From the NCBI GenBank assembly GCA_041402045.1, contig JAWKSZ010000043.1, positions 1 to 64,000 of the forward strand: a stretch of 64,000 nt of DNA, in the 5' to 3' direction. The notes beneath the pieces are model-generated. The model was not told the DNA's origin. It searched no databases and saw only the letters and a list, made by a program, of their open reading frames with translations. The stretch comes from Planctomycetota bacterium. Lineage in GTDB: Bacteria; Planctomycetota; J058. Positions 7,601 to 27,833 of the stretch are shown in pieces (the stretch's first letter is position 1; each line of letters opens with the position of its first letter). A program made the translations under genes and the position numbers.

Positions 7601-9747
7601 GCCAGCGCGATCGCGCTCTGCACGTTCTGCGAGAACAAGCGGAACTGCGCGGCGAACTCGGCCTGACCCTCCGCCGAGAGCAGCTGCTTGCGCCGCCCGT
7701 CGAGGGTGGCCCGCACCCGGTTCTGCTGGGCGAAGGCCTCGCTGATCCGCTCCAGGACCTCCGTGCGCTGGGTGGGATCCTCGACCTCGAGCCCGCTCAC
7801 GACCTCGGTCAGCACGGTCAGACCCTCGGCCTTGGCCTCGAGCTCGGCGCCCAGGGGCGCGAGGTCCTTGGTCTTGGTCGTGGCCTCGATCTGCTCGAGC
7901 AGCCCGTCGAAGGCCTGCTTGATCGGCTCCAGGGCTGCCGGGCGCAGGAGGAACTCGATCGCGGCGCGGCTGATCCGCTCGAACTGCGCGACGATCTCCT
8001 GCTCCAGGGCCTCGACCCGGGCCACGTCCATGTAGCGCAGGTCCTTGAGCGTGATCGCGCGCCCGCGCTGGGTGCGCAGGCTGCGCAGGGCCTCCATGAA
8101 CGGCTCGACGCTCTGCCAGTCCTCGACGGTCAGCTCGCGCTCGACCTCGCGCTGGGCCTGGAGCGCCTCGGCCAGCGCGCGCTCGGCCTGCTGCCGCAGG
8201 ACCTGGACCTTCTCGAACTCCTCGAGGATCAGCTCGGCGTTCTTGCGCACCCCCTCGATCGGCTGCTTGAGCTCGCCGACCTCGGGGTGGTCCAGCCAGT
8301 AGTAGGCGTCGAGCGCCCGCTGCGCCGCGCGGATCAGGCCCTCGTAGACCTGCCGGTTGGGCGCCTGCTCCTCGACCGCCCGGGCCAGGCTCAGGCTGTC
8401 CGAGATCCCGCGCACGAGGTCGGCGTTGCCGACCTTCGCCAGGAACGAGCCGTCGCTCGGGGCCTGGGCCGCGTGCTCGGGGGTCATGAACGGCGTCTGC
8501 CAGATCTGCATCGGGTGCGTGCGCGTGGGTTCGTCGGAGAGCACCCGAAACACGATCATGGAGCCGTCGTCGAACAGCGTGGACCCGTGGCACTGGATCG
8601 GGGTCTGGACCTCCTTGCGAATCAGGTTGTAGGGGAACAGCACGTAGCTCCCCTCCACCCGGTGGTGGAACACGTAGAGCACGTCCTCGCCGTTGGGCGA
8701 CTTCACGCTGCGCAGGAACTCGAGGTCCTGGTGCGCGCCCTCGAACAGCTTGAACTCGCCCGACTGGAGGAAGTAGCCCCCAGGGAAGATCACCCCGTGG
8801 TCCTCGGGGAGCTGCACGCAGGTCTGCCCGATCGAGTCGACCCGGGTCACCGCCTGCGTCCGCGCGCAGTAGATCAGGTAGCGCCAGGCGACCTCGCCGT
8901 AGGGCAGGATCTTGAGCAGGATCAGGCTCCCGAGCTTGGCGTAGAGGATCTGCCCGTCGTCGAGGCCCTGGTTCGCGTCGTCGACGGGCTCGTTGTAGAT
9001 CCCCTTCCCGTCCTCCGTGTTGTCCTCGACCTTGATCGTGAGGTCGCCGCCCACGGTCTCGACGAAGACCTCGTCCAGGATCGAGACGTGGGGGTGCTGG
9101 CCCTGCACGTGGTCGTCGCGGGTCGTGGCCTTCCACTCGAAGTCGTGGCTCTTGGGGCGGGTGTGGTCGCGCTCGCCGCGGTTGTCGACGTAGCTCGGGC
9201 GCCCCTCGCCGTCGAGGGCCCAGCGAAACACCCGGATCGCCGACGGCCCCTGCCCCGTGCGGAACACCGCGAGGAGCTTGCCGTCCTTGACCCGCAACTG
9301 ATCGAGCTTCGACTCCTTGTAGTACTCGTAGAGCTCGTGGAACTCGCGCTGGAAGCTCTCGGCGTCGAACAGGCCCGGGAGCGCGCTGAAGGGCACGGGC
9401 TCCAGCGACCAGGCCCCGTCCGCGCCCCGGGTCACCTGCTGCAGGCTGAACACGTCCTCGACCCGCGTCTCGCGCTTGAGGCCGATGAACACGTTGTAGC
9501 CGAACAGCAGGTAGCCCCCGACGGTGGCGATATCCCGGGGCACGCAGTTGTTCTCGGTGCGCACCCGCTCGTTGCCGGTCACGACCAGCTCGGTGCCGCC
9601 GAAGGTCTCCTTGCGCCGCTCGTTGAGGGCCTCGGCCTTCTCGCGCACCGTACGCGCCAACCCCACGAGGCGCTCACGGATCACCTCGTAGTTGCCGGTG
9701 TCGAGGCCCTCGGCCCCTGCGCTCGTCTCGGCGGCTTCCTCGCTCAC
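4651..9747 (-). CDS. giant (about 1,700 aa) multidomain protein: N-terminal beta-rich region, long helical/coiled-coil middle, C-terminal P-loop AAA+ (MoxR/AAA_5-like) ATPase; last gene of the NfeD-flotillin operon
   Basis: Walker A LLLVSPPGYGKTTL and Walker B VMLYLDDIQ. Natural composition, unlike the two overlapping R/G/P-rich ORFs (4291..9852 +, 4325..9136 -). The 3' end probably continues to about 4437 through two frame shifts. Confidence 0.8.
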   Translation of the reverse strand: MSEEAAETSAGAEGLDTGNYEVIRERLVGLARTVREKAEALNERRKETFGGTELVVTGNERVRTENNCVPRDIATVGGYLLFGYNVFIGLKRETRVEDVFSLQQVTRGADGAWSLEPVPFSALPGLFDAESFQREFHELYEYYKESKLDQLRVKDGKLLAVFRTGQGPSAIRVFRWALDGEGRPSYVDNRGERDHTRPKSHDFEWKATTRDDHVQGQHPHVSILDEVFVETVGGDLTIKVEDNTEDGKGIYNEPVDDANQGLDDGQILYAKLGSLILLKILPYGEVAWRYLIYCARTQAVTRVDSIGQTCVQLPEDHGVIFPGGYFLQSGEFKLFEGAHQDLEFLRSVKSPNGEDVLYVFHHRVEGSYVLFPYNLIRKEVQTPIQCHGSTLFDDGSMIVFRVLSDEPTRTHPMQIWQTPFMTPEHAAQAPSDGSFLAKVGNADLVRGISDSLSLARAVEEQAPNRQVYEGLIRAAQRALDAYYWLDHPEVGELKQPIEGVRKNAELILEEFEKVQVLRQQAERALAEALQAQREVERELTVEDWQSVEPFMEALRSLRTQRGRAITLKDLRYMDVARVEALEQEIVAQFERISRAAIEFLLRPAALEPIKQAFDGLLEQIEATTKTKDLAPLGAELEAKAEGLTVLTEVVSGLEVEDPTQRTEVLERISEAFAQQNRVRATLDGRRKQLLSAEGQAEFAAQFRLFSQNVQSAIALADTPEACDEQLSRVLLQLEELESRFSEFDEFLADLAAKREEVYEAFDAKRQTLTDARQRRAQNLFGAAERILAGVGRRAKNFPSLDELNAYFAADPMVLKLQQISAELGELGDSVKADEVLAALKTAKQDAQRGLRDRLDLFSGGENTIKLGRHAFNVNTRPLELTLVPRGEGMALHLTGTDFYEPVQDEGFQATKPFWQQQLVSETPEVYRGEYLAYTILDEAERGVGGRSLQGLLDAQREEGGLLAVVRGYAQDRYDEGYERGIHDHDAALILERLLALYTGAGLLRFPPRVRAYACLFWAHGDEEQQEGWLLRARSLGRLTARLGPTPAMDALAQELAAEVAESFEIDPAELAQAGRYLAEELAQETLAFVQSREALELIEAFLQALGPERQGLEEDLQALDGDLGAQVGLIRAWLEGFLGGKRDDDPRARVFDEASVLILTQGALPYEPSAAALEAEVPGLLGQHPRIHDRSLTLRLDEFLGRLSAFKTRRVPAYRAYRVLVRELLEREKERLRLEEFTPRVLSSFVRNRLVNEVYLPLVGENLAKQIGAAGEGKRTDLMGLLLLVSPPGYGKTTLMEYVANRLGLTFVKVNGPSLGHSVTSLDPAEAPSATARQEVEKVNLAFEMGNNVMLYLDDIQHTHPEFLQKFISLCDGQRRIEGVWKGRTRTYDLRGKKFCVVMAGNPYTESGETFQIPDMLANRADTYNLGDVLEGKDQVFALSYVENALTSNPTLAPLAGRDPEDVTRLLRLARGEAVPTTEFTHAYSGVELNEITAVLKHLFRVRDVLLKVNGLYVRSASMDDAFREEPPFKLQGSYRNMNKLAEKVASALTPDELEALVDDHYRGESQTLTTGAEQNLLKLAELRGRLTPEQAARWAAIKKEFGRQRLLGGRDDDPVTRVTSQLSALGTQVEGVREALLQAAGKAQGGEGDPLRELAQRLGVLAENPPQVTSRPSTWGTWPWPGSWASRSRPCARRSSP

Positions 9748-20552: not shown

Positions 20553-22547
20553 TCATCCGAGCCTCTGCTTGAGGTGCAGATCGTCCAGGGTGCGCACACG
20601 GTCGATCTCGCTCAAGTCCTTCTCGCCGGTGCGGATCCGCACGATCTTGGGGTCGCGCAGCGAGAGCAGGCCGCCCTCGTCGCGCACGACCCCCTCGAAG
20701 CGGACCGTCGCCACGATCCCCGGGCGGAGCTCGACCCCGGCCTTGAGCCCGGTCGAGGTCTGGCGCTCGAGGGTTCGGCCGCTGAGCAAGCCCTCGTCGA
20801 GGATGGCCTGCATGAGCTGGGCCGAGTCCCGGGCGCCGAGGCCCTGGACGCGGCCCACCTCGACCAGCGCCGGCCCGTCCCCCAGCGCAGCGATCAGGTA
20901 GGTCCCGAAGCTGGCCCCGGGGCCGTCGGCGCTCGTGGTGTAGAGCGCGCCGACGACCGCGAGGTCGAGGGTCAGCGCCGGCTTGAGCTTGGTCCAGCGG
21001 TCGGAGCGCCGCCCGAGCTCGTAGGGCGAGTGCGGGTCCTTGGCGATCCCGCCCTCGTGTCCCTGGCTGCGGAACAGCTCGTAGAGCCGGCGCATGCTGG
21101 CCGCGTCCTGGACCAGGTCGCCGTCGGAGAGCGCGACCGGCAGCGGCAGGGGCAGCGCGGCGATCGGGGCCAGGAGCGCGCTCAGCGCCGCGCGGCGCTT
21201 GACCAGCGGCTCGCCGGTCAGGTCGCGCCCGTCGAGGTAGAGCAGGTCGAAGGCGGCGAAGCGGTAGCGCAGGGGCGGCCCCTCGCCGCGCAGGGTCTTG
21301 AGCAGGTCGTAGACCGAGGCCGGGCGCGGCCCGAGCTCGGTGAACACGTGGGCGTGCAGCTCGCCGTCGACGATCGCGTCGCGGCAGGGCAGCGCCCAGG
21401 CCAGGGCCTGGAGCCCGGGGATCTGCTGGGTCCAGTCCAGGCGCCGGCGGGTGAAGGCCGCGCAGCGCACGCCGCCGTGCTCGTTGGTCGCCTTGTGGAC
21501 CATGAGCCGGATCCCGTCGTACTTCGTCTCGAACAGCACCGGGAAGCGCTGGTCACTCGGCACCTCGGGGCCGGCGAGCATGGGGCCCACCGGCGCCAGG
21601 GGCTTGAGCGCCAGGGCCGCGAGCCCGGCGTGGCCCTCCTCCTCGAGCAGGTGCGCGAGCTCGAACATGTCGACCAGCGAGCGGGCCACGTCGAGCCGCG
21701 CGCGCTCGGCGCCGGTGACCTCGGCCAGGGCGTCGATCAGCGCGTCGTCGCCCAGGGTCTGGCCCACCCGGCTGCCCTGGCGGAGGAAGCCCACGAGGAA
21801 GAAGCGCTCGAGGCGTCCGGCGCGGCCGAGGAGCGAGGCCAGGGCGTCGCGCTTGAGCCGGGTCGGCAGGCCCTTGAGCCCGCGCAGGGCGACCAGCACC
21901 TCACGGGTCGTGAGCGGGGGATCGCTCCGGTGCAGCTCTGCGTGGGACACGAACAGCTCGCGCAGGTCGCCGACGCGTCCCAGTGTGTTTCGCAGCGCGC
22001 CGGGGGAGGTCATGCTCACCGTGGCCAGGGCGTCGAGGAGCACGTTCAGGCTCGTGCCCAGCCGACCCCCGGCGAAGGGGTCGCCGCGCACGAGGCACAC
22101 CTTGTCGACCAGGCTCAGCCCGGTGTCGGGCTGGGCCAGGAACCCGCTGACCAGCGCGCGGCGGCCGGCGCCGTCGAGGCGCCCCGGGCCGCGCAGCCCG
22201 AACAGGCGCAGGCTGCGCGCGGGGGCGAGCCCCGCGAGGGGCAGGAGCAGGCCGTAGCACACGTCGTGGAACGGGAGCGAGTCGAGGAAGCCCTCGGGGG
22301 GGACCTCGTGCGGGTCCTCGCGCCAGCGCTGCCACAGCGCGCAGGCGAGGTGGTCGGGCAGGCCGAGCGCGTCCTGGGCCGAGCGCATGCGCGCCAGCTC
22401 GGCCTCCCGCGAGCGGGGCTCGCCCAGGGGCTGGGCCAGGAGCTCCCAGAACCCGCGCACGGGGCCCTGGTCGCGGGCGCGCTCCGCCACGTCGTCGGCG
22501 CCGATCAGGCGCACGGCTGCTGCGAGGTCGCTCACGGGGTCGCCCAC
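20553..22547 (-). CDS. ATP-dependent DNA ligase (N-terminal DNA-binding domain + adenylation KYDG + OB)
   Basis: Motif I FETKYDGIRLMVH. GTG start overlaps the stop of the upstream KaiC-like gene (TAGTG). The first ~250 codons of ORF 20553..23309 were rejected as read-through. Confidence 0.8.
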   Translation of the reverse strand: MGDPVSDLAAAVRLIGADDVAERARDQGPVRGFWELLAQPLGEPRSREAELARMRSAQDALGLPDHLACALWQRWREDPHEVPPEGFLDSLPFHDVCYGLLLPLAGLAPARSLRLFGLRGPGRLDGAGRRALVSGFLAQPDTGLSLVDKVCLVRGDPFAGGRLGTSLNVLLDALATVSMTSPGALRNTLGRVGDLRELFVSHAELHRSDPPLTTREVLVALRGLKGLPTRLKRDALASLLGRAGRLERFFLVGFLRQGSRVGQTLGDDALIDALAEVTGAERARLDVARSLVDMFELAHLLEEEGHAGLAALALKPLAPVGPMLAGPEVPSDQRFPVLFETKYDGIRLMVHKATNEHGGVRCAAFTRRRLDWTQQIPGLQALAWALPCRDAIVDGELHAHVFTELGPRPASVYDLLKTLRGEGPPLRYRFAAFDLLYLDGRDLTGEPLVKRRAALSALLAPIAALPLPLPVALSDGDLVQDAASMRRLYELFRSQGHEGGIAKDPHSPYELGRRSDRWTKLKPALTLDLAVVGALYTTSADGPGASFGTYLIAALGDGPALVEVGRVQGLGARDSAQLMQAILDEGLLSGRTLERQTSTGLKAGVELRPGIVATVRFEGVVRDEGGLLSLRDPKIVRIRTGEKDLSEIDRVRTLDDLHLKQRLG

Positions 22548-23827
22548 TACGCCAGCGGGGGCAGGGCGTAGTCTTCGGGGTGGCTGGGGTGCACGATCAT
22601 GCGCCCGTCCTGGTCGAGCTTGATCCGCACCGGCCGGGGGAAGATCGGCGTGGTCACGCTCTTGATCGCGCGCAGCACGGTGATCTTGTCGCGGTACTTG
22701 CCGCCCCAGAAGTCGGCCATGTCCTTGGAGCCCAGCGCCAGGCTCTCGATCAGGAACACGACGTCGGCGGTGTGCATGAGCGGCTGCCCGCCCACCGGCT
22801 CCCCGGTGTCCTTGACCTGCCCGATCGTGACGCAGGTCACGCCGTGGCTGTGGTTGTAGGTCTTGAGCGTCGCCAGGTTGTCGGCGGTGCGGGTCTTGCT
22901 CGGGTCGAGGGTGTTCAGCGAGTCGACGACGACGAAGCGCACGCCCTCTTGCTCGACCACGTGGCGGTAGCGGCGAATGAAGTCGTCCCAGCTGTGTCCG
23001 CGGTGGTACTGCGCGAGGATGATCAGCACGTTGGGCAGGACCTTCTCGCGCAGCCCCGCCTCGTCGAGGCCGGTGGCGGCCATGGCCAGCTTCACGAAGC
23101 GGCTGCAGAGGTCGTCGCGCCCGCTCTGCTCCTCGTCGCGGAAGCCCTCCTCGGCGACGACGTAGGCGCACTTGGTCCCGCTGGCGGCGACCCGGGCCAC
23201 GGCCTCGAGCATGCTGCGGGTCTTGCCCTTCCCCGGAGGGCCCGCGAAGGCCACGGTGCAGCCCTTGGGGATCCCGCCCAGGGCGGTCTTGGCGTCGGGG
23301 CTCAGGCACAGCCGGTCGAGGACCTGCTGCACGGGGAGCGCCTCTTGCTCCTTGAGCAGGTCCTCGATCAGGGCGGGCTTGACGATGTCCGCCTCGAGCC
23401 CCTGCTCCTCCTCCTCGTTCACCCCGGCGAAGGGCTGCGCCGAGGGGTCGACCCCGCCCATGCCCAGCATGGACTGGGTCATTTGCATCATCTGCATCAT
23501 CTGGGCCATGGGGTTGCCGTAGCCCATGGGCATCATGCCGCCCTGGGCGCCGGGGTAGACCCCGCCCTGCATGCCCATGCCCGGCTGCATGCCGCCCATG
23601 CCCATGCCCTGCATCCCAGGCTGCATGCCCATGCCCGGCTGCATGCCGCCCATGCCCTGCATGCCCATGCCGGGCTGCATGCCGCCCATGCCCATGCCCT
23701 GCATCCCAGGCTGCATGCCGCCCATGCCCGGCTGCATGCCCATGCCCGGTTGCATGGCCTGCGGCTGCGCGGGGGCCTCGGCCTCCGCGACGGCCTTGGT
23801 CTTCTTGGTGGTCTTCTTCTTGGCCAT
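22547..23827 (-). CDS. KaiC/RadA-like RecA-superfamily ATPase with a Met/Gly/Gln/Pro-rich low-complexity N-terminus
   Basis: Start MAKKKTTKKTK with GAGGAG RBS. Walker A AGPPGKGKT and Walker B FVVVDSLN. N-terminal QPGMGMQPGMGGM repeats. Confidence 0.8.
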   Translation of the reverse strand: MAKKKTTKKTKAVAEAEAPAQPQAMQPGMGMQPGMGGMQPGMQGMGMGGMQPGMGMQGMGGMQPGMGMQPGMQGMGMGGMQPGMGMQGGVYPGAQGGMMPMGYGNPMAQMMQMMQMTQSMLGMGGVDPSAQPFAGVNEEEEQGLEADIVKPALIEDLLKEQEALPVQQVLDRLCLSPDAKTALGGIPKGCTVAFAGPPGKGKTRSMLEAVARVAASGTKCAYVVAEEGFRDEEQSGRDDLCSRFVKLAMAATGLDEAGLREKVLPNVLIILAQYHRGHSWDDFIRRYRHVVEQEGVRFVVVDSLNTLDPSKTRTADNLATLKTYNHSHGVTCVTIGQVKDTGEPVGGQPLMHTADVVFLIESLALGSKDMADFWGGKYRDKITVLRAIKSVTTPIFPRPVRIKLDQDGRMIVHPSHPEDYALPPLA

Positions 23828-24260
23828 GACGCTCCTCGGGATCGGGCGGAATCCTAAAGGAGCAGAGGACGTTCGGCCACGACGCCAGACGGCAGACGCT
23901 CGCCCGGTGCAGCTCCGCGAGGTCGGCATCGGCGCGCGGGATCCCTCCGAGATCGAGGAGGTGGAGGGACGGCCCTACCGGGAGCAGCGAGCTGCTCCCC
24001 TACAGGTTTTCTGGCCAAGGGACGGCGGCTGGCTCCGCGAGGTCCAGCTCGTCGCCGGCGCGCCTGCGATCCCGGCACGCCGGCGAGCGGCGTCCGCCGC
24101 GAGCGCGCAGCGAGCGCGCAGCGATCGCCGGCGCGCCCTGCGAGCGGCGTCAGCCGCTCGCGCGCAGGCGGCCGGCGAAGCCGGCCGCGAGCCCTTGGGG
24201 TGAGGCCGAGGGGCTTTGCCCCGAGGCCGAGGGGTCTGGGACAGACCCCCTGAGGCATCA

Positions 24261-24316
24261 GTTCCTTGGGCGGCGCAAGCAGTGACTTCGTCACTGCTTG
24301 CGCCGCCCAAGGAACC
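24261..24316 (-). terminator. perfect 26-bp inverted repeat (3-nt loop) spanning the stop codon of the kinase gene; putative terminator or structured element
   Basis: gttccttgggcggcgcaagcagtgac-ttc-gtcactgcttgcgccgcccaaggaac. Confidence 0.5.
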
Positions 24317-26117
24317 GGCCCAGCAGCGCCTTGGCCTTGAGCTTGCGCTGGCCGGCGCGGAGGAAGCCGTCGAGGTCGCTCTCGAGCTGGCGCGCGCTGG
24401 CGTAGCGATCGTCCTGCGCCTTCTCCATGCAGCGCAGCACGATGTCCGCGACCTTGCGCGGGATCTGGTCGTTGAGCTTGACCGGGTCCTTGGGCGGCTG
24501 GGAGAGCACCTGCTTGATGATCTTGCGCGGGTCGCGGCCCGAGAACGGGGGCTTCCCGGTGAGCAGGAAGTAGAAGGTCGCGCCCAGGGAGTAGATGTCG
24601 CTGGTGGCGTTGATCGAGCCGTGGCCGCCGCGGGGCTGAGCCTGCTCGGGGGGCATGTAGGAGGGCGTGCCCATGATCAGGCCCTTGTCGCGGCTCTTGG
24701 CCTCTTGCTCGGCGACGAGGCCGAAGTCGATCAGCAGGCTGCGGTAGGGCTGGGCCGTGGTGTCGAGCATGATGTTCTGCGGCTTGAGGTCGCGGTGGTA
24801 GATCTTCTGCGCGTGCACGTAGCTCAGCGCCGAGGCGATCTCCTTCACGATCCGGACCGCGAACAGCGCGGGCAGCGGACCCTTGCGCTGGACCTGCTGC
24901 CGGGCCTCGAGGCCCTCGATCAGCTCCATGGAGTAGTAGGTGAGGCCGGCTTCGACGCCGGCGTCGAACATGCGCACGATGTGCGGGTGGTCGAAGCCGA
25001 TCAGCGCGCGCACCTCGTCGAGGAAGCGCTCGGTCTCGGCGTCGGACTGGTGCATCATGACCTTCAAGGCCAGGTTGCCCTCGTAGCCGCGCTGGGTGGC
25101 CATGGACTTGGCCATGCCGGTCGGCTCGACCTCGAGCACCACGCCGAAGGCGCCGCGCGCGATCTCGCGCAGGATCTGGTAGTCGCCGACCTTCAGCCCC
25201 TCGAACTTGGCGCGGGCCTTGAGCCGACGCTGGAACTCGTTGCGGTCGAGGCTCCCCCCCGGCGCCCTCCCCGGCACCAGGGTCGGCTGCGGCCGAGCCA
25301 CCTGGCGCGTGGGCGAGGTCGAGTCGTTCATGATCATGGTCGGCTGGGCGAGGATCTCCTCCTCGGAGTCGGTCAGCCCGCCGCCCTCTTCCTTCACGAT
25401 CATGGTGGGCTGCGCGAGGAGCTCGTCCTCGCTCAGCCCGCCGCCGGGGTCCTGGTCGCTCACGATCATGGTCGGCTGCGCGAACAGCTCGTCCTCGTCG
25501 AGGGCCTCCTCCTCCGCGCGCTTGGCCGCGCGCTGGGCCTGCATGGCCTCGAACTCCGCCTCGCTGAGCATGTCGTCACGGGCCGCGCTCGTGCTGGGCA
25601 CGATCAGGGTCGGCTGCGCGTAGAGGTCGTCGTCGCTGAGGTCCATGCCCCGGGTGTCGGCCACGATCATGGTCGGCTGCGCGTAGAGGTCGTCCTCGCT
25701 CGGGCCGCCGAAGTCGGGCTCGTCGTCGCTGGGCAGGTCGATCGCGGGGAGCGTCGCCGGCGGGCCGAGGGCCGCGCTGGCGTGGGGCGCGAGCTCGGGC
25801 TCGCTGTCGGGCCCCAGGCCGTCGACCTCGTCCTCCATGGGGATCACGAGGGCGTCGGCCTCTTGCTCGAGGACGCTGCTGGGGGTCGGCGCTGGCGGCG
25901 GCTGTTGGCCGCGGGCGGCGGCGGCGGCGCGGCGGAACTCGGCGATCAGCCGCTCCCAGCCGGGTCGATCGAGGAGCCCGGCGCGGACCAGGATCTGGTC
26001 GAAGGTCATGCCCGGCGCGCGCGGAGCGAGCTCCATGGCCCGCTGCAACCCCACCCGATCCACCAGCCCCAGCTTCAGCGCGAGCTGGGCGAGGAGGGTA
26101 TCGCGGGGGTTGAGCAT
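24291..26117 (-). CDS. Ser/Thr protein kinase with N-terminal acidic domain carrying 5 copies of a (D/E)(L/I)(Y/F/L)AQPTMIV repeat
   Basis: Start MLNPRDTLLAQ with GAGG RBS. Kinase motifs HRDLKPQNIML, DFGL and PPEQ. Confidence 0.8.
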   Translation of the reverse strand: MLNPRDTLLAQLALKLGLVDRVGLQRAMELAPRAPGMTFDQILVRAGLLDRPGWERLIAEFRRAAAAARGQQPPPAPTPSSVLEQEADALVIPMEDEVDGLGPDSEPELAPHASAALGPPATLPAIDLPSDDEPDFGGPSEDDLYAQPTMIVADTRGMDLSDDDLYAQPTLIVPSTSAARDDMLSEAEFEAMQAQRAAKRAEEEALDEDELFAQPTMIVSDQDPGGGLSEDELLAQPTMIVKEEGGGLTDSEEEILAQPTMIMNDSTSPTRQVARPQPTLVPGRAPGGSLDRNEFQRRLKARAKFEGLKVGDYQILREIARGAFGVVLEVEPTGMAKSMATQRGYEGNLALKVMMHQSDAETERFLDEVRALIGFDHPHIVRMFDAGVEAGLTYYSMELIEGLEARQQVQRKGPLPALFAVRIVKEIASALSYVHAQKIYHRDLKPQNIMLDTTAQPYRSLLIDFGLVAEQEAKSRDKGLIMGTPSYMPPEQAQPRGGHGSINATSDIYSLGATFYFLLTGKPPFSGRDPRKIIKQVLSQPPKDPVKLNDQIPRKVADIVLRCMEKAQDDRYASARQLESDLDGFLRAGQRKLKAKALLGRFLGRRKQ

Positions 26118-26408
26118 GAACGACCTCGAACTGCAGCATACCGCTTGCCACGGCCCGAGCGTAGTCCTGGTCTCGCGTGGTCTTACGTCCAGGCTTGGGC
26201 TACACTCGAAGCGCACGCACAGCGCGCGGAGGCGCCCCTGACCCAGCCCGAGGGTCCACCTCAGGAGCCCGCCGACGCCAGCTCGGGGCGCGGAGCGATC
26301 AGCTCCAGCGAGACGATCGAGCTGGCCGGCGCCGAGACGACGCCCCCCCGCGGGGGCGGCGACCCCAGCACCGAGACCGGATCCCTCCTGGGCGGGCTGC
26401 GCTCGGGG

Positions 26409-27833
26409 TTGAGCGACCTGCGCCAGCGGGTCAGCGGCGAGTCCGGTGACCCGCCCCCGCCCCTGACCCCGGCCGACGAGTCCCACGCGGTCCTGCCCCC
26501 GGGCACCCAGCTCGGTCGCTACACCCTCGAGGCGACCCTGGGCAAGGGCGGCATGGGCGTGGTCTACAAGGCCCACGACACCTCGCTCAACCGCCACGTC
26601 GCGCTCAAGGTCCTCTCGCAGGACCTCAGCCGCAACAGCCAGTTCACCGCGCGCTTCCGCCGCGAGGCGCAGGCCTGCGCGCAGCTCAGCCACCCGAACA
26701 TTACGCACATTTACACGATCTCCGACGACACCGACCCCTGTCAGTACTTCGTCATGGAGTTCGTCGACGGCCCGACCCTCGCCGAGCGCGTCGAGCGCGA
26801 CGGGCCGCTGCCGGTGGGCGAGATCCTCGAGATCGGGCGCCAGACGGCGCGCGGCCTGCAGGCGGCGGCGCGGCACAAGATCGTGCACCGCGATATCAAG
26901 CCTTCGAACCTCATGCTCACGAGCTCGGGGCAGGTCAAGATCACCGACTTCGGCCTGGCCAAGGCGCGCGCCGACATGGGCCACACCCTCGACCTGACCT
27001 CGACCGGGGTCGTCATGGGCACGCCCTTGTTCATGAGCCCGGAGCAGGGCCGCGGGAAGACGATCGACCACCGCTCGGACATGTACAGCCTGGGCGCGAC
27101 CTTGTTCTTCCTCGCCTACGGCTGCCCGCCGTTCGAGGCGGACTCGCCGGTGGCGATCATTCTGCGCCACATAAACGACCAGGTCGTGTTCCCCGAGACC
27201 CGCGAGGTCCCCGAGTCGTTCAAGGCGCTCCTGCGCTACCTGCTGGCCAAGGACGCCTCGCGCCGGCCCCAGGACTACGACCAGCTCCTCGAGGACATAG
27301 ACCGCGCCGAGCGCGGCGAGACCCTGGCCCAGTCGGCGACGCGGGTCGTGACCCTCTCGCCGCCGCGGAGCACCGCGCGCCGCAGCCTGTTCAAGGCCGG
27401 CAAGCTCGCGGTGGCCCGCACGAACCTCAAGCTCAAGCGCCGCGACAAGGCCGAGGCCCTGCTCGCCGAGGCGATCCAGGACGGGGACCCCAGCCTGAGG
27501 TGCGAGGCCGCGCTGCTCCTGCTCGAGCTGCGCGAATCCGCGGGGGAGCACGGCGACGTCGAGCGCCTGATCCAGATCGTGGCCGAGACCGCGCGGGACC
27601 CGGAGACCAAGGCCTTCGCCGCCTGGAAGCTGGCCGAGCTCGACCAGCGCCGCGCGATCGAGAGCCTGGTGAACGCGGTCGAGCGCCTGCAGGCGATCGA
27701 GCTCGAGCGCCCGCCGGAGCTCCCGGCCGCGCTCCTCGACGAGCAGCTCGTGCGGCTGCGCGAGCAGCTCTCTGCCCTCGAGCGCGAGCAGGGCACGGTG
27801 CGCCTGTTCCTCGGGCGCTCTCCGGGCGCGTGA
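26409..27833 (+). CDS. Ser/Thr protein kinase; N-terminal extent uncertain
   Basis: Kinase motifs GKGGMGVVYKA, HRDIKPSN and DFGLAK. First canonical start is TTG 26409, but high third-position GC in frame back to about 26215 suggests an extension. Divergent from the kinase 24291..26117. Confidence 0.65.
   Translation: MSDLRQRVSGESGDPPPPLTPADESHAVLPPGTQLGRYTLEATLGKGGMGVVYKAHDTSLNRHVALKVLSQDLSRNSQFTARFRREAQACAQLSHPNITHIYTISDDTDPCQYFVMEFVDGPTLAERVERDGPLPVGEILEIGRQTARGLQAAARHKIVHRDIKPSNLMLTSSGQVKITDFGLAKARADMGHTLDLTSTGVVMGTPLFMSPEQGRGKTIDHRSDMYSLGATLFFLAYGCPPFEADSPVAIILRHINDQVVFPETREVPESFKALLRYLLAKDASRRPQDYDQLLEDIDRAERGETLAQSATRVVTLSPPRSTARRSLFKAGKLAVARTNLKLKRRDKAEALLAEAIQDGDPSLRCEAALLLLELRESAGEHGDVERLIQIVAETARDPETKAFAAWKLAELDQRRAIESLVNAVERLQAIELERPPELPAALLDEQLVRLREQLSALEREQGTVRLFLGRSPGA

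Follow-up and report, generated by a model that had tools for sequence, protein, structure and literature searches.

The ATPase and ATP-dependent DNA ligase encoded side by side in this planctomycete DNA probably constitute a DNA repair module that is undescribed within the literature we searched. Both genes lie on the minus strand of the window, the 64,000-nt stretch of contig that was analyzed, with the same ends as in the first-pass annotation, and the pair has been passed on together in Planctomycetota, Myxococcota, other bacteria, and Asgard archaea. On balance, we favor the view that it is a dedicated system for the repair of DNA breaks or gaps whose two genes are co-transcribed and probably co-translated. 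The genes and their junction are:

22547..23827, minus strand: ATPase gene, RecA superfamily (KaiC/"RAD55" type), 426 aa (Pfam, sequence)
20553..22547, minus strand: gene for an ATP-dependent DNA ligase of 664 aa (start GTG 22547) or 660 aa (start GTG 22535) (Pfam, NCBIfam)
22535..22549, minus strand: junction, with TAG 22549..22547, the overlapping GTG 22547..22545, and a second in-frame GTG 22535..22533 (sequence)

The ATPase starts at ATG 23827, with GAGGAG 6 nt upstream and a "MAKKK" N-terminus that is kept in homologues, and ends at TAG 22549..22547. The first-pass annotation took the ligase to start within this stop codon (TAGTG). The overlap is literally present, and GTG 22547..22545 is in frame with the ligase, but it is probably not the start in use: the NCBI ligase protein (P0121, 660 aa, 100% identical) begins at the second GTG, 22535, which aligns with the ATG start of an 88%-identical relative that carries GAGGAG within its 16-nt spacer. 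We therefore favor the GTG 12 nt downstream. The genes are spaced by −1 or +11 nt depending on the start, and they are tightly coupled in either case. The co-expression proposed from the overlap is supported by related loci, as 39 of 52 junctions either overlap (17) or are separated by a spacer of 0–16 nt (22).

The pairing itself, which might have been accidental, proved to be conserved when synteny was checked. Of 88 informative related loci, 62 have the ligase downstream of the ATPase and on its strand, and so do all 13 loci of the window's own clade (these counts take in some duplicate contigs from overlapping collections). Furthermore, the identities of the two proteins to their counterparts in the window are correlated (r = 0.86, n = 50), showing that they co-diverge. 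The ATPase is distributed over Heimdall-, Hod-, Kari-, Thor-, and Hermodarchaeota, myxobacteria, and planctomycetes; it forms an operon with the same long ligase in Thorarchaeota and Heimdallarchaeota LC_2, and the pair is also present in MAGs labelled Alpha- and Deltaproteobacteria. At Promethearchaeota-type loci, the ligase is convergent to a distant ATPase homologue. The presence of the module in Asgard archaea lay beyond what the first-pass annotation could know. Approximately 30% of informative loci have no ligase within 8 kb, including those of a whole subclade (0/10) and of Ca. Uabimicrobium, so that the ATPase may be encoded away from a ligase, or function without one. No alternative partner is shared among these loci, where unrelated housekeeping genes lie downstream; examples are genes for a histidine kinase, a ketoacyl synthase, a cation efflux protein, and a gluconolactonase.

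As a single-domain motor of the RecA superfamily, the ATPase belongs to the ring-forming KaiC/archaeal RadA-paralogue/RadA-Sms type, and by this kinship it would be expected to assemble as a ring. The RecA/KaiC-like core recognized in the first-pass annotation is borne out by a match to the Pfam KaiC-type ATPase family (PF06745, 35.7 bits, cut-off 26.6), by a fold comparison, and by the catalytic Glu and the Walker motifs:

23219..23242, minus strand: Walker A, GPPGKGKT, aa 196–203 (invariant columns in 108 homologues; aligns with the RecA P-loop region)
22913..22939, minus strand: Walker B strand, RFVVVDSLN, aa 297–305 (invariant in 108 homologues)

All of D302, S303, L304, and N305 in Walker B are invariant, as are an EE pair and a sensor Gln. 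Because these elements and the ligase motifs described below are unchanged among homologues, both proteins look like active enzymes, as judged from sequence. In the fold comparison the ring-forming KaiC, PH0284, SSO2452, Sms, T7 gp4, and Twinkle rank first, with Rad51, RecA, and RadB behind them, and the fold is nearest to KaiC-like archaeal RadA paralogues and RadA/Sms. At the level of sequence, solved proteins resemble the ATPase over only ~55 residues around the P-loop, and the family is compact and isolated, a search of 1.84 billion representatives giving only 121 matches at E ≤ 1e-3.

Membership in KaiC proper does not hold. Circadian KaiC carries CI and CII, a tandem pair of RecA-like domains, on a chain of ~500 aa, whereas the 426-aa ATPase has one ATPase domain, matched by Pfam in a single stretch, and scores 11.2 bits against the NCBIfam KaiC model PRK09302 (cut-off 408). 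No KaiA or KaiB partner is indicated by the genes listed at the retrieved loci, among which there is no KaiB-type Pfam family. The protein also falls outside RecA, RadA, and RadB, scoring 26.4 bits with RecA model TIGR02012 (cut-off 325) and 25.5 bits with RadB model TIGR02237 (cut-off 172), and its N-terminus is low in complexity rather than HhH. SSO2452 (PDB 2w0m) and PH0284 (PDB 2dr3), which are of the aRadC type, resemble it in sequence only at the P-loop region; they lack the basic/Met-rich tail and the DPSAxPF motif described below, and no linkage to a ligase has been described for them. As for Rad51 paralogues (Rad55–Rad57, XRCC3, RAD51C/D), the name "RAD55" reflects a broad COG and not orthology, and the window ATPase has no adjacent partner paralogue and is linked to a ligase instead of a recombinase.

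The N-terminal tail of the ATPase is made up of the following elements:

23777..23827, minus strand: basic/charged N-terminus MAKKKTTKKTKAVAEAE, aa 1–17 (its "MAKKK..." start is kept in bacterial and Asgard homologues)
23450..23776, minus strand: uncharged Met/Gly/Gln/Pro low-complexity region of imperfect tandem repeats, aa 18–126 (TRF, composition)
23453..23515, minus strand: conserved Met/Gln-rich motif NPMAQMMQMMQMTQSMLGMGG, aa 105–125 (N105, M113, and neighbors invariant or nearly so)
23429..23449, minus strand: DPSAxPF motif, aa 127–133, followed by an acidic stretch (D127, A130, and F133 invariant in 21 and 108 sequences)

A low-charge N-terminus of about 150 residues had been proposed; the low complexity stands, but the region spans only ~110 residues (18–126), as the first 17 are charged. 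It consists of 26% Met, 27% Gly, 14% Gln, and 10% Pro, with no charged residues, and its coding stretch has TRF periods of 27, 54, and 90, the 90-nt unit being present in 1.9 copies as assembled (95% match). This depletion of charge would suit a prion-like domain, but the label is imprecise, since the tail is rich in Met, Gly, Pro, and Gln (Asn is ~2% in the pooled family tail), unlike Q/N-rich classical prion-like domains. Collapse of repeats during assembly, a possible artefact, is ruled out by independent assemblies from many phyla: each of the 104 homologues examined has a tail, with 27.6% Met when pooled, and these tails differ in length and sequence while their composition is constant. 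Among stop-free 60-residue windows in all six frames of the 64 kb, at least 10% Met occurs only here and in the region's own antisense. The G+C content of the window is 72%, and the use of ATG in the tail goes against this base composition. Pfam returned nothing meaningful for the isolated tail.

The Met/Gln-rich motif NPMAQMMQMMQMTQSMLGMGG, probably a helix, is present in 90 of 109 family members, and Asgard members carry the related DQMAMFSQMMQSFQSMM, with "SSQPF" at the place of DPSAxPF. An architecture of tip, linker, helix, and xPF is thus common to Asgard and bacterial members, the Asgard tails having the same layout without the repeat expansion. We conclude that a tail rich in Met, Pro, Gly, and Gln marks this family and is a conserved functional element. 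Met-rich low-complexity domains are known from yeast Pbp1/ataxin-2 and TDP-43 (PMC8394241). Like the ATPase tail, these are low in complexity, unusually rich in Met, and poor in aromatic and charged residues, and TDP-43 has a Met-rich helical segment inside its disordered domain (PMC8394241); however, they are parts of RNA-binding proteins of eukaryotes, with a Met content far below the 26–30% of the ATPase tails.

The ligase consists of a clade-specific helical extension followed by DNA-binding, nucleotidyltransferase, and OB domains, and by its motifs it is a catalytically complete nick-sealing enzyme of the archaeal/Lig1 type. Two of its features are:

21522..21524, minus strand: codon for K342, the lysine predicted to be adenylylated, in motif I, KYDGIR (motif I conservation)
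22068..22547, minus strand: N-terminal helical extension, ~aa 1–160 (precedes the part that aligns with solved ligases)

Pfam DNA_ligase_A_M (PF01068) matches with E = 5.5e-25 (88.7 bits, cut-off 26.2). The nucleotidyltransferase has its motif I lysine (KxDGxR) as well as motifs III–V: across 38 ligase sequences, K342-YDGIR, FDLLY, EGGIAK, and WTKLKP are conserved, and E340, K342, Y343, D344, G345, and R347 are invariant. The flanking DNA-binding and OB domains are identified by phmmer, which aligns aa 132–660 with residues 25–554 of the P. furiosus ligase (2cfm), by an AF2 model (pLDDT 87.8) with helical, NTase, and OB parts, and by Foldseek, whose top matches are archaeal ligases and human LIG1 with E around 1e-30. 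Pfam A_N scores below its cut-off (20.9 vs 24.6) and A_C is undetected in the window ligase; both are detected in clade relatives. The extension is confidently helical in the AF2 model and has no Pfam match; its motifs LGLPDHLA, SIPFHDLCYGLLLPL, and GDPF recur in the 38 clade members and in the Thorarchaeota ligase. This extra domain is found only in this ligase clade, whose members score at least 420 bits before a drop to 100 bits for every other ligase. The Thorarchaeota partner ligase is 30% identical to the window ligase over aa 53–651 (E = 7e-53).

Known operons of bacterial ATP-dependent ligases are LigD–Ku, LigC–PrimPolC, and LigB–Lhr–MPE–exonuclease (PMC7470946). The present pair resembles them in that an accessory ATP-dependent ligase is encoded with a dedicated repair partner, and its ligase shares with LigB a DBD–NTase–OB layout that resembles archaeal ligases. 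It differs in its partner, a RecA-superfamily ATPase being absent from that review's list (PMC7470946), and in its ligase, which has the additional clade-specific helical domain of ~130–160 aa and is well separated in sequence from LigB, LigC, and LigD. The polymerase and phosphoesterase domains of LigD are absent (TIGR02776, 109.9 bits, cut-off 373). Nor does the LigB operon fit: TIGR04120 scores 64.2 bits (cut-off 400), the window ligase is accompanied by the ATPase, rpsD, and a Ser/Thr kinase, and a cluster of Lhr, metallophosphoesterase, and exonuclease was seen in none of the related loci listed. The first-pass annotation did not recognize a KaiC-like ATPase as a ligase partner, and likewise we found no paper in the literature searched that describes a RecA-type ATPase in this role.

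The reading of the pair as a break-repair module fits its recurrent neighbors. In 11 loci a PolX gene lies upstream of the pair in divergent orientation, and in 7 SbcC is close by; both flank the pair in a bacterial subclade. The Promethearchaeota pair is surrounded by a Rad50-like SMC, NurA, HerA, and a UvrD/PD-(D/E)XK protein. These four neighbors (PolX, SbcC, NurA, and HerA) occur only in subclades, and a search of the 64-kb window revealed no PolX or SbcC; NurA and HerA are likewise absent from it. Induction as part of an SOS response was not borne out: no LexA-type box could be recognized ahead of the ATPase gene, and the spacer there, which is much shorter in close relatives, is not conserved. 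Specifically, 23828..24295 contains no E. coli-type, Gram-positive, alphaproteobacterial, or Myxococcus-type LexA box, although these consensi may not be the phylum's own. Only a trivial CTG-N10-CAG occurs in this interval. A consensus promoter scan returned nothing, and neither did Rfam and tRNA searches across the window. A known anti-phage defense system was ruled out, as neither protein has a PADLOC match at E ≤ 0.01.

In the mechanism we propose, the ATPase would assemble on broken or gapped DNA, spend ATP to hold or remodel the ends, and recruit or position its cognate ligase, plausibly by way of the clade-specific N-terminal domain of the ligase. The module would thereby complete repair after end processing (by SbcCD, or by Mre11–Rad50/NurA–HerA) and gap filling by PolX. 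The tail, with its basic tip, Met/Pro/Gly/Gln linker, Met/Gln-rich helix, and DPSAxPF motif, most likely serves in self-association or partner recruitment.

Alternatively, the ATPase could be a hexameric branch-migration helicase like RadA/Sms, in a module for homologous recombination whose ligase merely seals nicks in the products. We consider this unlikely. Bacterial RadA/Sms has a C4 zinc finger, a KNRFG motif, and a Lon-like C-terminal domain, and the ATPase has none of these: it contains no Cys clusters, reads KSVTTP where KNRFG would sit, and ends ~35 aa past the core, which alone is matched by the RadA/Sms model TIGR00416 (22.9 bits, cut-off 403). Additionally, the PolX, SbcC, and NurA/HerA neighbors fit end processing and joining equally well, and mere nick sealing needs no ligase-specific docking domain.

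It is more doubtful still that the pair is a viral or mobile cassette for replication or genome maintenance (for instance a ligase with a loader, joining Okazaki fragments or concatemers) that was later domesticated. Relatives of 45–50% identity do occur on contigs of many small ORFs with PHROG matches, where they adjoin a minimal 206–207-aa ligase nucleotidyltransferase, and one such contig has an intein-containing gene. However, three scans of 2.9 million IMG/VR contigs found no member, and bacterial replication normally uses the NAD-dependent LigA. The cellular loci lie among housekeeping genes, with rpsD adjoining the window pair in a gene order that is the same in the closest relative, and no integrase or repeats flank the pair in the window.

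That a KaiC-like signaling ATPase merely happens to sit beside an accessory ligase was already disfavored and is scarcely credible. Archaeal KaiC-like ATPases are often signaling proteins and the ligase-less loci noted above would fit, but same-strand adjacency is retained across two domains of life at only 30–45% protein identity, reading frames overlap in many lineages, the two proteins co-diverge, and the ligase clade is specific to the ATPase context. Repair of RNA is equally implausible, as the RNA 3'-phosphate cyclase (RtcA) gene divergently upstream of the pair in Heimdallarchaeota LC_2 is a single observation, whereas the ligase has the DNA-binding domain and overall fold of a DNA ligase and the other recurrent neighbors are DNA enzymes.

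If the break-repair reading is true, a RecA-superfamily ATPase as private partner would define a further ligase-centered pathway beside those in which accessory ATP-dependent ligases work with Ku, PrimPol, or Lhr/MPE partners (PMC7470946), and would give a function to the "RAD55 family ATPase," which is widespread in Planctomycetota, Myxococcota, and Asgard archaea. The ligase adds an unannotated N-terminal domain, and the ATPase tail is among the most Met-rich conserved tails known to us in a prokaryotic protein, despite 72% G+C. The module bears on how a ligase reaches DNA breaks where Ku is lacking and on a possible role of Met-rich low-complexity regions as redox-sensitive assembly elements in prokaryotes, and its distribution over Asgard archaea, myxobacteria, and planctomycetes is relevant to gene exchange among lineages discussed in eukaryogenesis. 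A more speculative version, to which we give little credence, is an ancient repair system of Asgard archaea and bacteria in which the ring ATPase would be a platform at DNA ends or nicks for its private ligase, and the tail a reversible Met-oxidation switch or condensate scaffold that gates ligation by oxidative stress, as a bacterial counterpart of the redox-sensitive low-complexity domains of Pbp1 and TDP-43. In this version, since the Asgard layout is without it, the repeat expansion would be an addition made by bacteria to an archaeal core. The Met count of the tail reaches about 40 in 150 residues.

The pairing of the RecA-superfamily ATPase with the ATP-dependent DNA ligase extends well beyond the window, whose closest relatives are Planctomycetota metagenome-assembled genomes. 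Among 100 related loci retrieved for comparison, the ligase lies on the ATPase locus in 62, no ligase is found within the available 1.5–8 kb downstream in 26, and 12 are too short to judge; these frequencies are approximate, since some loci are duplicated across overlapping collections. The ligase is present in all 13 loci of the window's own clade and missing throughout one 11-locus subclade (0 of 10 informative loci), as it is from a Ca. Uabimicrobium locus (CP165719), and the downstream genes of ligase-less loci are unrelated. Chondromyces crocatus likewise has an ATPase gene unlinked to the ligase. Of the 52 junctions at which the genes are adjacent, 17 have the earliest possible ligase start overlapping with the ATPase stop (as ATGA, TGATG, TAGTG or GTGA) and a further 22 have it 0–16 nt past the stop, and the identities of the two proteins to those of the window are correlated across loci (r = 0.86, n = 50). 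Together, these observations settle a concern raised in the first-pass annotation, as a pairing kept in this way in relatives is not accidental. Five loci carry an unrelated insert between the two genes, and genes of the defence or toxin type seem to be accepted at the junction, or drawn to it.

Inserts between the ATPase and ligase genes (NACHT/SNaCT5 protein, ParE toxin or unknown ORFs)
L073, 2413..4437
L076, 1803..2189
L071, 8906..10352
L080, 8920..9759

In the window, which has a G+C content of 72%, the ligase frame follows the ATPase gene directly, and rpsD lies 183 nt downstream of the pair.

The ATPase–ligase junction in the window
22547..23827, minus strand: ATPase gene, ATG at 23827 and stop TAG at 22549..22547, 426 residues, with GAGGAG six bases before the ATG
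20553..22547, minus strand: ligase frame, open from GTG 22547, which has one base in common with the ATPase stop (TAGTG)
22535, minus strand: alternative in-frame ligase GTG, the start of the NCBI protein for this ligase (P0121, 660 aa, 100% identical)

The TAGTG overlap described in the first-pass annotation is thus present, but the real ligase start is more probably 11 nt past the ATPase stop than at the overlapping GTG, because P0121 begins there and an 88%-identical relative has an ATG, preceded by GAGGAG, at the position equivalent to GTG 22535. Whichever start is used, the packing of the two genes is that of an operon.

The ATPase had been described as having a KaiC/RadA-like core, and residues 183–358 do score above the cut-off for the KaiC-type ATPase family; membership of the KaiC and Sms families themselves does not hold. 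KaiC is ruled out by the single domain, and Sms by the missing zinc finger, KNRFG and Lon domain. Scores against the RecA, RadB, Sms and KaiC equivalog models all fall far under the cut-offs, which for RecA and RadB also rules out a RecA/RadA recombinase. Over 108 homologues, the Walker A motif (GPPGKGKT), the glutamate pair of AEEGF, the GRDDLCSR motif, the Walker B motif (VVDSLN) and a GQ sensor followed by PVGGxxLxHTAD are all invariant. Likeness to solved proteins is limited to a stretch of about 55 residues surrounding the P-loop, and a ranking of fold relatives places ring-forming members on top by a margin that is not wide. When 1.84 billion cluster representatives were searched exhaustively with phmmer, only 121 proteins reached E ≤ 1e-3, and by these sequence comparisons the family forms a branch that is compact and isolated within the RecA superfamily.

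The ligase contains a nucleotidyltransferase domain (PF01068, E = 5.5e-25) with the full set of catalytic motifs, including K342 in KYDGIR, and its residues 132–660 can be aligned with replicative ligases of archaea from end to end. In an AlphaFold model (pLDDT 87.8), the N-terminal region is helical and the nucleotidyltransferase and OB domains come after it, and Foldseek matches the ligase to archaeal ligases and human LIG1 (E ~1e-30). Upstream of the canonical DNA-binding domain, the model has an extra segment of about 130–160 residues, confidently helical, which carries the conserved motifs LGLPDHLA, SIPFHDLCYGLLLPL and GDPF and has no match in Pfam. The clade to which the ligase belongs comprises 38 proteins of 636–667 aa and one 367-aa fragment, each scoring at least 420 bits in a homology search in which ligases outside the clade reached at most 100 bits. 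The ATPase and this clade-specific ligase are apparently both active.

The most unusual part of the ATPase is its N-terminus, where a charged, basic segment (residues 1–17, MAKKKTTKKTKAVAEAE) is followed by a tail with no charged residues at all (residues 18–126; Met 26%, Gly 27%, Gln 14%, Pro 10%), encoded by imperfect 27/54/90-nt repeats whose length here is as assembled. At its end, the tail has a conserved NPMxQMMQMMQM...GG motif and an invariant DPSAxPF, and an acidic stretch comes next. It was found in all 104 scorable homologues (median 83 aa, range 19–153), with a pooled composition of 27.6% Met, 17.1% Pro, 17.1% Gly, 13.1% Gln, about 2% acidic and about 3% basic residues; a few members have Tyr-containing PGY repeats in place of Met. 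Outside this stretch and its antisense, no reading frame of the 64-kb window reaches even 10% Met over 60 residues. The composition kept in 104 homologues, and the lack of anything comparable elsewhere in the window, argue that the tail is a selected, composition-conserved feature, and exclude the collapsed-repeat artefact that had been considered. Pfam gives no match to the tail. By composition alone, what has been described nearest to it is the type of Met-rich low-complexity domain found in Pbp1 and TDP-43, where methionine oxidation reversibly governs self-association (PMC8394241).

The exhaustive search also placed Asgard archaeal proteins among the divergent ATPase relatives. In one Thorarchaeota genome, a 44%-identical ATPase gene stands 17 nt ahead of the gene for a 650-aa ligase that aligns with residues 53–651 of the window ligase (30% identity, E = 7e-53), the N-terminal extension included. 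The arrangement is the same in Heimdallarchaeota LC_2 (L100). There, the ligase gene probably begins directly behind the ATPase gene (region 8167..8416), and the annotated protein would lack part of its N-terminus, since a tblastn alignment with the Thorarchaeota ligase begins at 8218, ahead of the public start at 8416. A Thorarchaeota-seeded search added archaeal members from Hodarchaeales, Kariarchaeaceae, Heimdallarchaeota and Hermodarchaeota, and bacterial ones from Chondromyces crocatus, C. apiculatus, Ca. Brocadiae and an Acidobacteriota MAG. The Asgard ATPases share the N-terminal layout, which opens with a basic MAKKK tip and runs through a linker, a Met/Gln-rich helix motif and xQPF to an acidic stretch, with the core behind it; long PGM repeats are absent from them, so the tip–linker–helix–xPF architecture looks ancestral and the repeat expansion bacterial. 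At Promethearchaeota-type loci, a 28–31%-identical homologue with an N-terminal winged-helix-like fusion is convergent to a 612–662-aa ligase, and the two are surrounded by a Rad50-like SMC protein, NurA, HerA and a UvrD/PD-(D/E)XK protein. Within one bacterial subclade, 11 loci have a divergent upstream gene for PolX, a polymerase with HHH_8, thumb and PHP domains, and 7 have SbcC near the pair; neither gene is present in the window, and PADLOC defence models match neither the ATPase nor the ligase.

The pair is therefore co-inherited, tightly coupled and repeatedly found beside break-processing and gap-filling genes. We consider it reasonably likely that the two proteins form a dedicated DNA repair module: the ATPase, most likely assembled into a ring, would bind or remodel damaged DNA and deliver or position its cognate ligase. 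The private N-terminal domain of the ligase would be the obvious candidate docking site, and the tail may act in self-association, in the capture of partners or in redox control. A plausible though distinctly less probable reading, hard to tell apart from ligase delivery, is Sms-like branch migration with the ligase sealing the recombination products. The ligase partnerships named in a review (Ku/LigD, PrimPolC/LigC and Lhr-MPE-exonuclease/LigB) do not include a RecA-type partner (PMC7470946), whereas here the partner is a RecA-superfamily ATPase. A ligase-centred repair operon is itself a known type, and what is new is the partner class and the unusual tail; the full-text literature, as far as its incomplete coverage extends, yielded no description of the pairing in bacteria or Asgard archaea, and one paper on Asgard viruses has ligases but no partner of this kind.

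That the pair is a replication cassette of viral origin appears unlikely. Two small-ORF-rich, virus-like contigs carry a 45–50%-identical ATPase adjoining or near a minimal ligase; three scans of IMG/VR turned up no member.

Regions of virus-like contigs with a minimal ligase (206–207 aa, nucleotidyltransferase part alone)
L099, 6678..9628
L093, 3306..3929

A 776-aa ORF carrying intein and LAGLIDADG domains precedes the minimal ligase of L099, and these ligases may be split or intein-interrupted. A meaningless adjacency is disfavoured as very improbable given the conservation of the pair, and a role in RNA repair is equally improbable, its sole basis being one neighbour, a divergent RtcA (RNA 3'-phosphate cyclase) gene upstream of the pair in Heimdallarchaeota LC_2 (L100, 5789..6832).

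Public records are likely to under-represent the tail, as its many in-frame ATG codons probably lead gene callers to shorten it, and short family members may be gene calls cut at internal ATGs. Two Chondromyces proteins (P0371 and P0355) and other 320–350-aa database entries start within the Met-rich motif (MGGNPMMAMMQMM...). The exact 426-aa or 460-aa ATPase product of the window was not found in the protein collection searched. Antisense to the repeat, an ORF of 210 aa rich in Met, Pro and Cys (MPMPGCMPPMPMPC...) is open at 23571..24203 on the plus strand because the CATG-rich repeats give ATG on both strands; it is unsupported as a gene and a trap for ORF callers.

Upstream of the ATPase gene in the window, where a search for LexA or other SOS boxes had been proposed, we found neither a known LexA-type box nor a sigma-70 consensus, and the spacer is not conserved among relatives.

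Features upstream of the ATPase gene
23828..24290: kinase–ATPase spacer, about 460 nt (about 110–150 nt in the closest relatives, with which it does not align)
24261..24315: perfect 26-nt inverted repeat with a 3-nt loop (GTTCCTTGGGCGGCGCAAGCAGTGAC / GTCACTGCTTGCGCCGCCCAAGGAAC), spanning the kinase stop at 24291..24293 (minus strand)
24291..27833: two large divergent Ser/Thr protein kinase genes, on the minus strand (end 24291) and the plus strand (end 27833)

In L001, L012 and L016, the closest relatives, the minus-strand kinase gene likewise lies upstream of the ATPase gene, and this order looks like clade-level synteny only. The spacer contains GC-rich direct repeats (24080–24110 and 24137–24167, 87% identical) and several imperfect inverted repeats. 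The perfect inverted repeat has no T-run, and may form an RNA hairpin or terminator, or serve as a protein-binding palindrome.
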